A program made the position numbers and the translations under genes. Shown one piece after another: positions 10,865-59,948 of a stretch of 64,000 nucleotides of DNA. The notes under the pieces were generated by a model. That model was given only the letters and a program-made list of their open reading frames with translations. It ran no database searches and was not told where the DNA came from. How positions within the stretch are numbered: position 1 is the first letter of the stretch; each line of letters opens with the position of its first letter. Source of the stretch: Sphyrna mokarran (taxonomy: Eukaryota); the NCBI GenBank assembly GCA_024679065.1, contig JAGIQG010000003.1:105586001-105650000 (forward strand), written 5' to 3'.

Positions 10865-12555
10865 ATAGAACATAGAACATTACAGTGCAGAACAGGCCCT
10901 TCGGCCTTCGATGTTGCGCCGACTAATTGTGAAAAAAGCAATATCCCTCCAAACTAAACCATTCCCTTCTCTTCCATAAACTTATCAACTAACCTCTTAA
11001 ACGCCACCAAACTTGGTGCATCTACAAATGCCGCAGGCAGGGCATTCCACTCCCTAACCACCCTCTGGGTAAAGAACCTACCTCTGATATCCGTCCTATA
11101 ACTATCACCCCTTATTTTAAAGCTGTGTCCCCTCGTGCTAGCTTTCTCCATCCTAGGAAAAAGGCTATCACTGTCCACCCTATCTAAACCTCTAATCATC
11201 TTATATGTTTCAATAAGATCCCCTCTTAGCCGCCTCCTTTTTAACGAAAACAACCTCAAATCCTTCAACCTCTCTTCATAGGACCTGCCCTCCATACCAG
11301 GCAACATCCTGGTAAACCTCCTCTGTACCCTCTCCAATGCGTCCACATCTTTCTTATAATGTGGGGACCAGAACTGCACACAATACTCCAAGTGCGGCCG
11401 CACTAGAGTTTTGTACAGTTGCAACATGACGTTGCGGCTCCGAAATTCAATCCCCTACCAATAAAAGCTAAGACTCCATATGCCTTCTTAACAACCTTAT
11501 CGACTTGACTGCCTAGTTTCAGGGATCTATGCACAAATACACCAAGATCCCTCTGTTCATCAACACTATTAAGAATCCTACCATTAGCCCTATACTCTAC
11601 ACATTTATTATTCCTGCCAAAGTGCATTACCTCACACTTTTCCACAGTAAACTCCATTTGCCACCTCTCGGCCCAGCTCTGCAACTTGTCCAAGTCACTC
11701 TGTAAACTATAACACCCCTCTTCACTATCTACCACTCCACCGAATTTAGTGTCATCTGCAAATTTACTGATCCATCCCTCAATACCCTCATCCAGATCAT
11801 TTATAAAATTACAAACAGCAGGGGCCCCAAAACAGACCCCTGAGGCACACCACTCGTCACCGAACTCCACGATGAATATCTCCCATCAACCACCACCCTC
11901 TGTCTTCTATCTGCCAGCCAATTCCTAATCCAATTAGCTAAAACACCCTCTATCCCACACATCTGCATTTTCTGCAGAAGCCTTCCATGGGACACCTTAT
12001 CGAACGCCTTACTAAACTCCATATATACCACATCAACCGCCTTACCCCCATCCACCTCTTTGGTCACTTTTTCAAAAAACTCAATAAGGTTAGTAAGGCA
12101 CGACCTACCCTTCACAAAACCATGCTGGCTATCCCCAATCAATTCATTTCTCTCTAAATAACTAAGTCCTGTCCCTAATAATTCTCTCCAATACTTTGCC
12201 CACAACAGAAGTAAGACTCACTGGCCTATAATTCCCTAGAAAGTCTCTCTTCCCCTTCTTGAACAATGGGACCACATTCGCTATCCTCCAGTCCTCCGGA
12301 ACCACACCCGTAACCAACGACGACCTGAAGATCAGAGCCAGAGGCTCTGCAATCGCCTCTCTTGCCTCCCAGAGAATCCTAGGGTAAATCCCGTCCGGCC
12401 CAGGGGACTTATCTAACTTCAAACCCTCAAGAATATCTAGCACATCCTCCCTATCTACTTCAATACTTTCCAGTTTGCAACCCTGTACCCCAGTGTTCTC
12501 CACAACTACGTTTACATCTCCCTGCATGAATACCAAAGAGAAATATTTGTTCAGT
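10865..12555 (-). mobile_element. Young 5'-truncated CR1 LINE (ORF2 RT, frameshifted), nested in an older CR1
   Basis: Overlapping ORFs 12536-10954 carry [53 protein letters not shown]; intact tail. Confidence 0.95.
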
Positions 12556-12559
12556 GCCT

Positions 12560-15520
12560 CTCTCTCTCTTGATCATCTTGTATGCCTCTATTAAGTCACC
12601 TCTTAACCTTCTTCTCACTAATGAAAGTAGCCTCAAGTCCCTCAGCCTTTCCTCATAAGATCTTCCCACCATACCAGAAACATCCTGGTAAATCTCTTTT
12701 GCACCCTTTCCATTGCTTCCACATCCTTCCTATAATGCAGAACTGTATGCAATACTCTAAGTATGGCCGCACCAAAGTTTTGTACAGCTGCAATATGACT
12801 TCATGGCTCCAAAGTGCAATCCCTCTACCAATAAAAGCTAACACACTGTACACCTTCTTAACAACTCTATCAACCTGGGTGCCAACTTTCAGGGATCTAT
12901 GCACATGAACACCAAGATCTCTCTGCTCAGCCACACTACCAAGTATCTTACCATTAGCCCAGTACTCTCTATTTCTGTTACTCCTTCCAAGTGAATCATC
13001 TCACACTTTTCCACATTAACCTCAATTTGCCACCTCTCAGCTCAGCTCTGCAGCTTAGTTATATCCCTCTGTAGCCTACAACATCCGTCCGCACTATCCA
13101 CAACTCTATCAGCTTTAGTATCATGCTCAAATTTACTAACCCATTCTTCTATTCCCTCATTCAGATCATTTATAAAAATGATAAACAGCAATGGCCTCCA
13201 ATCAGATCCTTGCAGTACACCACTAGTAACTGAACTCCAGGATGAACATTTTCCATCAACCACCACCCTCTGTCTTCTTCCAGCTAGCCAATTTCTGATC
13301 TAAATCATGCTCAATCCCATGCCTCCATATTTTCTGCAATAGCTGACCATGGGGGAATCTTAAGAAATGCTTTACTGAAATCCATATACATCACATCAAC
13401 TGCTTTACCTTCATCCACCTCTTTGATCACTTTCTCACACAACTCAATAAGGGTTGTTAGGCATGACATACCCTCACAAAACCATGTTGACTATCCCTAA
13501 ACAGATTATTCCTTTCTAGATGATTATAAATCCTATCTCTTATAATCCTTTCCAAAACTTTGCCATTACAGAAGTAAGGCTCACTGGTCTATAATTATCA
13601 GGGTTGCTTCTACTCCCCTTCTTGAACAAGGGGGCAACTTTTGCCATCCTCCAGTCTTCTGGCACTATTCCTGTAGACAATTACGACATAAAGTGCAGAG
13701 CCTTTGGCTTTGATATTTCCTCCCTTGTTTCCCAAAGAATCCTAGGATAAATCCCATCTGCTCCAAGGGATTTATCTATTTTCACACTTTCCAGAAATGC
13801 TAACACCACCTCCTTATGAACCTCAATCCTGTGTAATCTAATACCCTGTATCTCAGTATTCTCCTCGACAACATTGTCTTTTTCCTGTGCGAATACTGAC
13901 GAAAAATATTCATTTAGCACCTCTCCTATCTCTTTGGACTCCATGCACGACTTCCCACTACTGTCCTTGACAGGCCTTAATCTTACCGTAGTGATTCTTT
14001 TATTCCTGACATACCTATAGAAAGCTTTAGGGTTTTTCTTGAGCCTAATTGCCAAAGACTTCTCATGTCCCCTCCTGGCTCTTCTTAGCTCTCTCTTTAG
14101 ATCCTTCCTGGCTACCTTGTAACTGTCAGGCACCTTAACTGAGCCTTCACATCTCATCTTTACATAAGTCTCCTTCTTCCTCTTCACAAGAGATTCAACT
14201 TCTTTAGTAAACCATGGTTCCCTTGCTTGATTACTTCCTCCCTGCCTGACAGGTACAAACTTATCAAGGACACGCTGTAACTGTTCCTTGAACAAGCTCC
14301 ACATTTAAATTGTCCCCTGCAGTTTCCTTCCACATTCTATGCATCCTAAATCTCACCTAATTGCATCATAATTTCCTATCCCTCAGCTATAACTCTTGCC
14401 TTGCGGTATATATCTATCTCCTTTCATCACTAATGTAAACGTAACCGAATTGCGTCACCGTCACCAAAGTGCTCACCTATTCCCAAATCTCTCACTGGGC
14501 TGGTTCATTTCCCAGTCCCAAATCTACTGTTGGCCTATGAACATACTGTGTCAGGAAACCCTCTTGCACACTTGAACAAAAACTAAAGTACTAGAAGTAC
14601 AGCATTTCCAGTCAATATTTGTAAATTTAAAGTCCCCCATAACAACTATCCTGTTACTTTCGTTCCTATTCAGAATCATCTTTGCAATCCTTTCCTCTAC
14701 ATCTCTGGAATTTTTCAGAAAACTCCCAATAGTGTGACCTCTCCTTTCCTGTTTCTAATCTCAGCCCATACTACCTCAGTCCCTCATCAAACATTCTTTC
14801 TGGCAATGTAATACTATCCTTGACTAACAATGCCACAACTTCCCTTCTTTTACCACCTTCCCTGATATTACTGAAACATCTAAATCCTTGAACGTGCAAC
14901 GACCATTCCCGTCCTGTTCTATCCATGTTGTTGAAATTGCCACAACACTGAAGTTCCAGATACCAACCCACACTGCAAGTTCACCCACCTTATTCCGGAA
15001 GCTCCTGGCATTGAAGTAGGCACACTTCCAACCACCTTCCTGCCTGCCGGTATATTCCTGTGACCTTAAAACCTTATTGACCTCACTACTCTCAACCTCC
15101 CCTACACTGGAGTTACAATTCAGATTCCCATTCCCCTGCTGAATTAGTTTAAACCTTCATGAAGATCATTAGCAAACTTCCCCCCAGGATATTGGTATCC
15201 CTTGGTTCAGCTGTAGACCATCCCTTTTGTAGAAGCACACCTACCCCAGAATGAGCCCTAATTATCCAGGTATTTGAATCCCTCCCTCACCATCCCTGCA
15301 CCATCACTATAGCCATGTGTTCAACTGCTCTCGCTCCTAGCACGTGGCACAGGTAACAAACCAGAGATAACAACTCTGTTTGTTCTAGCTCTAAGCTTCC
15401 ACCCTAACTCCCTGAATTTCTGTCTTACATCCCCATCCCTTTTCTGATCAATGTCATTAGTACCTATGTGCACCATGACTTGGGGGAGGTCGCCCTTCCC
15501 CTTAAGGATCTCGAAAACAC
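12560..15520 (-). mobile_element. Older near-complete CR1 ORF2 (endonuclease, tether, RT), degraded
   Basis: ORFs 14771-14971 (EN: REGGKRREVVALLVKDSI), 13681-14304 (PWFTKEV, KNPKAFYRYV), 13042-13266, 12653-12934. Confidence 0.9.
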
Positions 15521-20143: not shown

Positions 20144-20970
20144 CACCTTTGTTACTGTATGAAAAGGTCAAGTGAATAAACAATCTGGTGGTGATCGAGC
20201 CAAGAAATTGTGCTGCAGATATATCAAGGGCAAGAATCCAGAACACAAATCTTTAACAGGAGAAAAACAATTTATTTCTCTGCAAATCATTTAATTTGAT
20301 CGTATGTTAAACTCCTTGCTGTTTCGCAGAATTGGAAGCAGAGTAACCTGAAGGGAACAGGAGCAACCGGTGAGTTGCTTCCCTTCGAGCAACGCTGAAG
20401 CTACCTTCTTGTTTCTGTTCCTGCTCTCAGCTCATCATCCTACCAGAATTTGGATTGGCCTGTGCTAATGTCCCACTATATCAAATGTGAATGATCCTGT
20501 AATCTTTAACTGAGGAAGAAGAGCATAGCAGATTGCCTGAGTCAGTTGCATGTTCATAAGGGATTGGTCGTAAATACCCTGAGTGATCAGATATTGAGAA
20601 TTTCCTCAGTGTCCCTCCTATTGATTCACACCATTTCCCCATGCTGCCACTTTTGCTTTATTGACAGCAGACGAATAGGTGAAAATCATTAATGTTCATT
20701 CCCATTGTTTATTAATTTGTCAAAATCTTTGTGTTTCTATATACAGAAGAATCAAGTGCACATCCAGCACTGTAATGTTGCCAACAGTGAGGAGTGACTA
20801 GCACTCGATTTGAAGGCCTGTTGTTACTGTTCAGTTTTTCTAATTCATAAGTTGGAAAGTGAATATCCGTTGTGTCTCTTGCAGATGCTGAACACTTACA
20901 GAAAAAAGCAATGAAAATTCGACTGACAGGTTGCAGAGGGGCTCTTCATCCAATGGTTCACTTACTCAGA

Positions 20971-21254
20971 TTTTTTTTTCCAATTCAATCAAACGAAGTC
21001 CAATTCAGAGTCTCAACAAGTGAATCATTCCTGATCCAAGCTGACAAGACAGGGCTCTCACCCACTGTCTTGGGCTTGATCTACATGATCCAAGCTGATT
21101 GGAGTAGGCACTGTGCTTCCTCCAAGGCTTGATCTCATTCGCATCTTAACCAAAAGGCTGAGATCCCAATTTTGAAAATTGCTTCAAATGAAGCTAAAAT
21201 GACTTCCACTAAGTCATACTACACTTGATCTTAGATAAAAGGCCGAAAAGCGAT
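20971..21254 (-). mobile_element. Putative U2-headed, multi-hairpin, A-tailed retroposon
   Basis: U2(1-39), three small hairpins, second U2 stem-loop I, two related long hairpins, tail ending GG(A)9. No TSD seen. Confidence 0.55.
21216..21254 (-). ncRNA. RNU2: U2 snRNA 5' fragment (nt 1-39), pseudogene or element head
   Basis: Minus strand ATCGCTTTTCGGCCTTTTATCTAAGATCAAGTGTAGTAT versus U2 ATCGCTTCTCGGCCTTTTGGCTAAGATCAAGTGTAGTAT: 36 of 39 identical. Confidence 0.9.
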
Positions 21255-58487: not shown

Positions 58488-59948
58488 ATTGGTTACGGGT
58501 GTGGTTCCGGAGGACTGGAGGATAGCGAATGTGGTCCCGATGTTCAAGAAGGGGAAGAGAGACCTTCCAGGGAATTATAGGCCAGTGAGTCTTACTTCTG
58601 TGGTGGGCAAAGTGTTGGAGAGAATAATTAGGGATAGGATTTATAGTTATTTAGAGAGTAATGAATTGATTGGAGATAGTCAGCATGGTTTTGTGAAGGG
58701 TAGGTCGTGCCTTACTAACCTCATTGAGTTTTTTGAAAAAGTGACTAAGGAGGTGGATGGGGGTAAGGCGGTTGATGTGGTATATATGGACTTTAGTAAG
58801 GCGTTTGATAAGGTGGCCCATGGAAGACTTCTGCAGAAAATGCAGATGTATGGGATAGAGGGTGATTTAGCTAATTGGGTTAGGAATTGGCTAGCAGATA
58901 GAAGACAGAGGGTGGTGGTTGATGGGAGATATTCATCTTGGAGTTCGGTGACAAGTGGTGTACCTCAGGGGTCTGTTTTGGGGCCCCTGCTGTTTGTAAT
59001 TTTTATAAATGATCTGGATGAGGGTATTGAAGGATGGATTAGTAAATTTGCAGATGACACTAAAGTCGGTGGAGTGGTAGATAGTGAAGAGGGGTGTTAT
59101 AGTTTGCAGAGAGACTTGGACAAGTTGCAGAGCTGGGCCGAGAGGTGGCAAATGGAGTTTAATGTGGAAAAGTGTGAGGTAATGCACTATGGCAGAAATA
59201 ATAAATGTGTAGAGTATAGGGCTAATGGTAGGATTCTTAGTAGTCTTGATGAACAGAGGGATCTTGGTGTGTATGTGCATAGATCCCTGAAAGTAGGCAG
59301 TCAGGTCGAGAAGGTTGTTAGGAAGGCATATGGAGTCTTGGCTTTTATTGGTAGAGGGATTGAATTTCGGAGCCGCAACGTCATGTTGCAACTGTACAAA
59401 ACTCTAGTGCGGCCGCACTTGGAGTATTGTGTGCAGTTCTGGTCCCCACATTATAAGAAAGATGTGGAGGCATTGGAGAGGGTACAGAGGAGGTTTACCA
59501 GGATGTTGCCTGGTATGGAGGGCAGGTCTTATGAAGAGAGGCTGAGGGATTTGAGGTTGTTTTCGTTAGAAAGGAGGCGGCTAAGAGGAGACCTTATCGA
59601 AACATATAAGATGATTAGAGGTTTAGATAGGGTGGACAGTGATAGCCTTTTTCCTAGGATGGAGAAAGCTAGCACGAGGGGACACAGCTTTAAATTAAGG
59701 GGTGATAGTTATAGGACGGATATCAGAGGTAGGTTCTTTACCCAAAGGGTGGTTAGGGAGTGGAATGCCCTGCCTGCAGCAGTTGTAGATGCGCCAAGTT
59801 TGGTGGCGTTTAAGAGGTTAGTTGATAAGTATATGGAAGAGAAGGGAATGGTTTAGTTTGGAGGGGCATTGCTTTTTATATTGGTCGGCGCAACATCGAA
59901 GGCCGAAGGGCCTGTTCTGTGCTGTAATGTTCTATGTTCTATGTTCTA
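58488..59948 (+). mobile_element. Young 5'-truncated CR1 LINE
   Basis: Open frame plus 3' UTR and (GTTCTAT)n tail; same subfamily as 10865-12555. Confidence 0.95.
58489..59856 (+). CDS. CR1 LINE ORF2, reverse transcriptase and C-terminus (5'-truncated, uninterrupted frame)
   Basis: 455 codons with no stop: [56 protein letters not shown]. No endonuclease domain and no true ATG start. Confidence 0.9.
   Translation: MVTGVVPEDWRIANVVPMFKKGKRDLPGNYRPVSLTSVVGKVLERIIRDRIYSYLESNELIGDSQHGFVKGRSCLTNLIEFFEKVTKEVDGGKAVDVVYMDFSKAFDKVAHGRLLQKMQMYGIEGDLANWVRNWLADRRQRVVVDGRYSSWSSVTSGVPQGSVLGPLLFVIFINDLDEGIEGWISKFADDTKVGGVVDSEEGCYSLQRDLDKLQSWAERWQMEFNVEKCEVMHYGRNNKCVEYRANGRILSSLDEQRDLGVYVHRSLKVGSQVEKVVRKAYGVLAFIGRGIEFRSRNVMLQLYKTLVRPHLEYCVQFWSPHYKKDVEALERVQRRFTRMLPGMEGRSYEERLRDLRLFSLERRRLRGDLIETYKMIRGLDRVDSDSLFPRMEKASTRGHSFKLRGDSYRTDIRGRFFTQRVVREWNALPAAVVDAPSLVAFKRLVDKYMEEKGMV

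Follow-up and report, generated by a model that had tools for sequence, protein, structure and literature searches.

A U2 snRNA-Headed, A-Tailed Element in Sphyrna mokarran, Likely a Member of a Dispersed SINEU-Type Retroposon Family

Introduction

The window analyzed here is a 64,000-nucleotide stretch of Sphyrna mokarran DNA (assembly GCA_024679065.1, contig JAGIQG010000003.1, positions 105,586,001 to 105,650,000). On its minus strand, at 21254-20971, a short element begins like U2 snRNA and ends in a run of A. This locus raises the question of what kind of sequence joins a piece of a spliceosomal RNA to an A-tailed body, and how such a sequence could be transcribed and copied. An initial annotation, made from the letters alone, had offered two answers: a non-autonomous retroposon that either uses a U2 head or parasitizes a U2-targeting LINE, and a template-switch chimera between U2 and a structured RNA.

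Anatomy of the Element

Inspection of the minus strand from 21254 to 20971 revealed a U2-headed, A-tailed element with the modules as first described. Together with the adjoining flank, the features were as follows:

21216..21254, minus strand: head of U2 snRNA nt 1-39, with its end at the Keno/Utopia target site (36/39 identical to the same genome's U2 gene L031; site as given in the available text of PMC4640811)
21206..21215, minus strand: remnant of the family linker, shortened here by a 10-nt deletion and possibly a relic of U1 stem-loop II (alignment to the family-A profile)
21191..21205, minus strand: putative 5' stem-loop (kink-turn) module of U4, decayed and with part of it deleted (in alignment A1 it is colinear with sister family C's U4 23-47 module)
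21181..21194, minus strand: small family-wide hairpin (exact in 33/58 family-A copies)
21143..21163, minus strand: second, internal U2 stem-loop I (19/21 identical to U2 nt 7-27)
21087..21134, minus strand: long hairpin 1, which duplicates hairpin 2 in tandem (pairs 110:137 and 111:136 differ in a compensatory way between families A/B and C)
21033..21081, minus strand: long hairpin 2, its 3' part probably diverged U2 sequence as traced through family C (C profile 270-338 against U2 22-91)
21010..21026, minus strand: hairpin 3, a remnant of U2 stem-loop IIb (about nt 68-84) preserved via one compensatory change at pair 217:228 (UA 24, CG 17)
20980..21009, minus strand: 3' tail, which in the window copy has lost the poly(A)-signal hexamer common in its relatives
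20971..20979, minus strand: A9 tail
20967..20970, minus strand: 3' flank of four bases equal to U2 nt 39-42, either a degenerate target site or chance

Four modules stood as they had been claimed: the 36/39 head, the second U2 stem-loop I (at 21163-21143), the two long related hairpins, and the short tail followed by A9 (20979-20971). The long hairpins contain 13-nt and 10-nt direct repeats at a spacing of 53-54 nt, and both were present in the MFE structure. Three small hairpins had also been named, and only the one at 21194-21181 was retained. The window copy differs from family A by two 10-nt deletions; the 7-bp hairpin at 21217-21199 is an artifact of one of these (its 5' arm occurred in 0/58 family-A copies), and the hairpin at 21180-21168, whose loop is a single nucleotide, was not a family-wide feature. 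The wording "highly structured" held in part: the window copy folded better than most shuffles, at z = -2.1 with 5/200 shuffles equally good, and is thus only modestly structured. The signal for a U1 relic in the linker was weak, with 5/9 family-B and 3/36 family-A linkers above the 99th control percentile.

The window copy retained no TSD (the longest word common to both flanks was 5 nt), and its first three flank bases recurred in only 4/59 copies of the unbiased set defined below. No second copy of the element was found within the window, and at the gathering threshold Rfam gave no match anywhere in it. The window also contained reverse transcriptase (RT) fragments at 58489-59856, 10954-11885 and 13681-14304 (all minus strand), one with a 455-aa open frame, which we take to be of CR1/L2 type.

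Family Size and Copy Structure

The body had been proposed for a copy-number check, and it was not single-copy. A genome search with the element returned 2040 first-look candidates and 41 scored matches, and one exact 23-mer had 926 genome matches (control 0). This 23-mer was carried by only 1/23 copies met as bystanders, so the total is likely of the order of ten thousand, with a wide error. The element belongs to a dispersed retroposon family, likely of about ten thousand copies, of which the window copy is a decayed one; for the window copy a one-off template-switch chimera is excluded.

The first 70 of the 926 23-mer matches in contig order served as an unbiased, motif-picked set, comprising 58 family-A and 12 family-B copies. 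Sixty-four of the 70 started within U2 nt 1-40 (15 of them at nt 1-3) and six were truncated in the body. The junction between head and body was fixed at U2 36-40 in 61/61 scored copies. A poly(A) hexamer preceded the tail in 41/70 A/B copies and 19/30 family-C copies. TSDs were tested in the 59 copies with a definable tail end against 600 mismatched-flank controls: 11/59 scored above the 99th and 20/59 above the 95th percentile of controls. Most TSDs were 12-19 bp long and abutted U2 nt 1 with no common 5' extension. The best copy was 95% identical to the column majority.

Thirteen sequencing runs from seven studies contained half or more of the words sampled from one copy. Setting aside the best-matching run as a possible source left six studies and four other organisms. 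No RNA run was listed among these; six sequencing runs presumed to be RNA contained 0.27-0.31 of the words of one copy.

Three Families and the snRNA Origin of the Body

A U1-headed sister family, C, which the initial annotation had overlooked, was first met beside the LINE described below (L302:7000-7330; L305-L334). Its search gave 2225 first-look candidates, of which 40 were scored and 30 read. The C profile matched three snRNAs of its own genome: U1 3-95 (41.8 bits), U4 23-47 (7.6 bits), and, over profile positions 270-338, U2 22-91 (14.3 bits). Each score was reached by 0/200 shuffles. From the U4 module to the tail, the C profile was matched by all 58 family-A copies (median 112 bits) and all 12 family-B copies (median 121 bits); the window copy scored 111.8 bits against profile positions 149-346.

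Direct matches to U4, U1, and U2(40-191) in families A and B were absent or marginal, with none to U4 in the window copy, and the origins of the window copy's modules are therefore traced through family C and alignment A1. By this transitive homology the body, which had been called "non-U2," is itself probably built of diverged U2- and U4-derived pieces. A U4 Sm-site origin of the AT-rich segment was also considered and rejected, as no profile match was obtained. An antisense U1 loop in hairpin 1 was dropped, being present in only 4/30 C copies and 0/58 A copies.

Identity to the column majority was 0.846 for family C, 0.883 for family B and 0.916 for family A, the last biased upward by the way copies were picked. 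This gradient suggests three successive families in the age order C, B, A. Between families, base pairs changed on both sides in three events; as the structure was derived from the same sequences, these events are no more than suggestive. In the named structure 90.4% of cells were paired, and 99/500 shuffles had at least as many pairs with changes on both sides. RNAalifold on 47 copies returned three pairs without a consensus structure, a result to be expected if copies decay neutrally.

Resident Tx1-Type LINE

The resident LINE encodes RVT_1 and a separate ZCCHC3-type ORF1. Its homologues are APE-RT-zf proteins, one of them named Tx1 149 kDa, and the nearest named relatives are RTs of fish, amphibians, and lancelet. 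An APE domain of the resident LINE is predicted from the domains of these full-length homologues. Genome searches with the LINE gave 1595-2056 candidates.

Five clear cases of a LINE 3' end before U2 38 onward occurred among 30 pattern loci. At L300 the LINE was preceded by U2 1-38 and followed by U2 38-52. The full-length LINE L302 begins with U2 32-52 and ends elsewhere, the pattern expected if the LINE RNA also began inside U2. Use of the U2 site was weak, at 2/30 LINE ends (one of them the query itself) and 1/70 element copies.

The element often adjoined this LINE. A copy directly followed a LINE 3' end in 3/70 cases, and a LINE end was followed by a copy in 3/30; at L142 and L209 the copy joined the LINE 3' end with no spacer. 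Homology between the 3' ends of element and LINE was limited to about 9 nt at the poly(A) signal. These observations point to a likely Keno-like, Tx1-type partner LINE, and the two halves of the alternative in the initial annotation, a retroposon with a U2 head or a parasite of a U2-targeting LINE, hold together for a multi-copy element tied to such a LINE.

Two further LINE loci were recorded. At L173:3437-8775 a near-full-length Tx1-type LINE and a family-B copy lie beside a C2H2 zinc-finger ORF, with one TSD in common three times. At G000:C1548:102147564-102159856 (L285-L287) three tandem 5'-truncated Tx1 copies with identical flanks occur 5.9 kb apart outside U2, probably a segmental duplication.

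Copies Inside U2 and Behind the U2 Promoter

Whether U2(40+) follows the tail in some copies had also been posed as a check, and in thirteen copies U2 resumed at nt 38/39 after the tail. Twelve came from targeted searches (L083, L084, L086, L090, L097, L099, L100, L102, L107, L149, L153, and L157): nine among 30 of 41 matches and three more among 30 of 81 pattern matches (control 20). The unbiased set added one of its 70 copies (L204). Both U2 paralog types carried inserted copies, L099 had a 10-nt duplication of U2 38-47, and L212 was a trimer in which copies were nested at the same site of earlier heads. Taken together, these three observations indicate that U2 was targeted repeatedly. Private U2 variants common to the dispersed in-U2 copies were sought and none was found, so read-through retrocopies are indistinguishable from insertions into existing U2 pseudogenes.

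Three loci had U2 upstream sequence in register before nt 1, and all three were decayed. L083, in the U2 cluster, consisted of a promoter region, U2 4-37, a family-B body, the tail, U2 40-191, and the U2 3' flank; its upstream region scored 71 as U2 promoter (shuffle maximum 31). At C949:17313671, 22 proximal U2-upstream nucleotides were in register, scoring 40 against L083 (shuffle maximum 26) and only 20 against the current U2 gene. L356 joined a U2 promoter to a family-A head of nt 1-49 and then a LINE piece; the remainder of its element was not found within about 20 kb. Before dispersed headed copies, U2 upstream sequence occurred in 0/64 cases (best score 26; shuffle maxima 23-33), which is what retrocopies of an RNA with its start at U2 +1 should show. 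An intact young master was not found in a search with one U2 promoter type (eight matches). For family C, a search with one U1 promoter variant found no copy behind a U1 promoter (three matches, all U1 genes), and 0/30 C flanks carried one.

Several neighboring features of the U2 loci were observed in passing. The U2 cluster at G000:C949:17326629-17351148 (L031-L034) is a four-gene array with genes 7.7-8.3 kb apart, and its spacer contains fixed fragments of Tx1 and other retroelements. Short tandem arrays hit by the Tx1-type LINE are formed by a second U2 gene type, diverged and with an upstream region of its own (L076:4750-4900, L300:3914-4332, L163, L149). Many dispersed U2 pseudogenes (L037-L047, L060) run 30-40 nt beyond the mature 3' end into the 3' flank and look like retrocopies of pre-U2 RNA that had not yet been processed. 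The U2 nt 38 site is also where other short A-tailed sequences end (L148:1305-1520, L151:1400-1560, L163:1430-1660); the one at L148 combines a U2 head with a different body and is perhaps a further family. Directly before the U2-headed copy at L149, positions 960-1062 hold what is presumably a 5S rRNA-like remnant.

Proposed Mechanism and Alternatives

At a probability of roughly 0.6, we favor the reading that the family is a SINEU-type retroposon of U2 and U4 pieces, copied by a Keno-like Tx1 LINE and transcribed from the host U2 promoter when a copy lies at U2 nt 37-40. Pol II would start at U2 +1, giving an RNA of U2 1-37/40 followed by the body. This RNA would be polyadenylated at the tail hexamer and reverse-transcribed by the LINE ORF2, mostly off-target with 12-19 bp TSDs, and some insertions would return to U2 genes, U2 pseudogenes, or earlier heads. 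Families A and B may go back to a 5'-truncated copy of family C, the older and U1-headed one, that inserted into a U2 gene and thereby acquired the promoter and first 37 nt of that gene.

The fixed junction at U2 36-40 coincides with the LINE insertion site. Copies behind the U2 promoter inside U2 genes likely explain how promoter-less elements are transcribed: for an RNA that lacks an internal promoter and begins at U2 +1, the U2 promoter is the simplest source, and the head would then be a co-transcribed target. The window copy contains five T4 runs, the first at nt 6, which argues against Pol III. Counting against the mechanism are the decay of all three promoter-linked loci, the lack of an intact young master and of a family-C copy behind a U1 promoter in the searches above, the weak U2 targeting, and the shortness of the 3' homology between element and LINE. 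A wider version is more tentative, and as a whole we hold it to be possible and somewhat doubtful: a lineage consisting almost entirely of snRNA parts (U1, U4, and U2) may swap heads and promoters by riding a U2-targeting LINE into U2 genes, its head captured from the target and its promoter belonging to the host gene, with the retained U1 loop II, the U4 kink-turn, and the refolded U2 hairpins recruiting snRNP proteins, as Alu recruits SRP9/14.

The strongest rival follows Kojima's SINEU model, proposed for the crocodilian elements in the available text of PMC4494074. The head would have been added once, by template switching onto an snRNA; masters would sit on unrelated flanking promoters, and in-U2 copies would be by-products of Tx1 target preference. 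The zero-spacer joins to the LINE 3' end at L142 and L209 are what template jumping would give, and decayed promoter-linked loci fit as well. TSDs that abut U2 nt 1 with no common 5' extension speak against it, as do three loci with the U2 promoter in register and a junction fixed at the Keno site, whereas the SINEU-2 template-switch junctions in that text vary by up to 22 nt. This model is unlikely and still keeps weight, mainly because the promoter of family C is unexplained: its U1 head has no known targeting site, and the one U1 promoter variant searched led to no master.

Far less probable is that a host gene for a variant snRNA, a U1/U4/U2 mosaic with a role in the cell, gave rise to the copies as processed pseudogenes and that no selfish element is involved. 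The three pairs with compensatory change between families would fit such a gene, and so would the U4 tandem GA/GA motif, intact in 8/12 B and 10/30 C copies; the motif is however lost in family A (0/58 intact), and the internal U2 part has diverged in its branch-site and Sm regions. A host gene also accords poorly with a succession of three families that differ in age and replaced their heads, and no intact source was found. A last possibility, a fragment of a LINE UTR or independently formed chimeras of U2 and LINE, is largely refuted despite the element's frequent adjacency to the Tx1-type LINE: on two near-full-length copies of that LINE profiles A, B, and C reached no more than 2.9 bits, the body maps to snRNAs, and copies carry their own TSDs. 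That the whole unit might be the UTR of a known Keno, Tx1, or Utopia family had been named in the initial annotation as what would overturn its reading; for the resident LINE this is not so.

Comparison With Known Systems

The reading of a U2-promoter-driven, LINE-copied retroposon places the family beside several described systems. A classical Pol III SINE of tRNA, 5S, or 7SL type was considered and rejected, the head being U2; when four copies were scanned with Rfam by E-value, U2 was the sole match and no ribozyme appeared. Like truncated U2 processed pseudogenes, the copies start at U2 nt 1 and are retroposed. Such pseudogenes continue in U2 or end in A-runs, unlike the family, which has a fixed 260-nt composite body and thousands of copies.

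An RLE-type (Utopia) LINE was not recognized among the 30 pattern loci read. Short derivatives of R2 elements occur in 28S rDNA. Like R2 and these derivatives, the family would rely on a target-gene promoter and carry target sequence at the 5' end of its RNA. It differs from R2 in that its target is an snRNA gene transcribed by Pol II, a ribozyme was not seen, and most copies are dispersed. Co-transcription of R2 with its 28S rDNA target is noted in the available text of PMC4494074.

In Keno and Utopia the 3' flank is U2 from nt 39 onward, and reptile Utopia has weak specificity with many off-target copies, according to the accessible part of PMC4640811. The shark family shares with Keno (Tx1) and Utopia the 3' junction at U2 nt 38/39, and its weak specificity is like that described there for reptile Utopia. 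In contrast to both, the element is non-coding, 300 bp long, and not an internal deletion of the resident LINE: neither its 5' nor its 3' end showed homology to the two near-full-length copies (best 2.9 bits). The partner LINE agrees with Keno in having an ORF2 with RT and a predicted APE (from full-length homologues), a separate ORF1, and, in a minority of copies, insertion at U2 nt 38/39.

The SINEU-1, -2, and -3 families (Kojima, 2015, PMC4494074) have U1 or U2 heads, were found only in crocodilians, and target Mariner-N4_AMi, and no U4 part is described in the available text. Their transcription is left open there, snRNA promoters lying outside the RNA. The restriction to crocodilians is repeated in the accessible part of a review (PMC5381603), and the corresponding part of PMC7245038 holds nothing further on SINEU distribution. 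Searches of the openly accessible literature turned up no description of a family of this kind in any host but crocodilians.

The family resembles SINEU as described in that partial text: U1- and U2-derived heads on a common 3' body, a length below 500 bp, a poly(A) tail, oligo-T runs that rule out Pol III, tandem copies with a TSD between them, a Tx1-clade partner, and head replacement over time. With SINEU-2 and SINEU-3 it also has a U2-derived body in common. The U4 module, the duplicated and refolded U2 segment, the copies at U2 38/39, and the U2-promoter-linked loci set the shark family apart from SINEU as described there. Among the traits by which SINEU is recognized, the shark family has the U1 or U2 head, a short non-coding multi-copy sequence with common structure, and poly(A) with TSDs; the lack of Pol III transcription is argued from the sequence, by internal oligo-T, and mobilization by the Tx1 clade is indicated indirectly, by the common U2 38/39 site and adjacency. 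By these descriptive traits the family appears to fit the SINEU kind, and it is set beside SINEU-1/2/3 by description, not by sequence.

So placed, the family would extend snRNA-headed SINEs beyond crocodilians and add U4 as a source of SINE modules, and its three successive families would record U2 sequence duplicated and refolded under apparent structural constraint. To the question of how snRNA-headed SINEs are transcribed it offers a concrete answer, in fossil loci that lie behind the U2 promoter at the Keno site.
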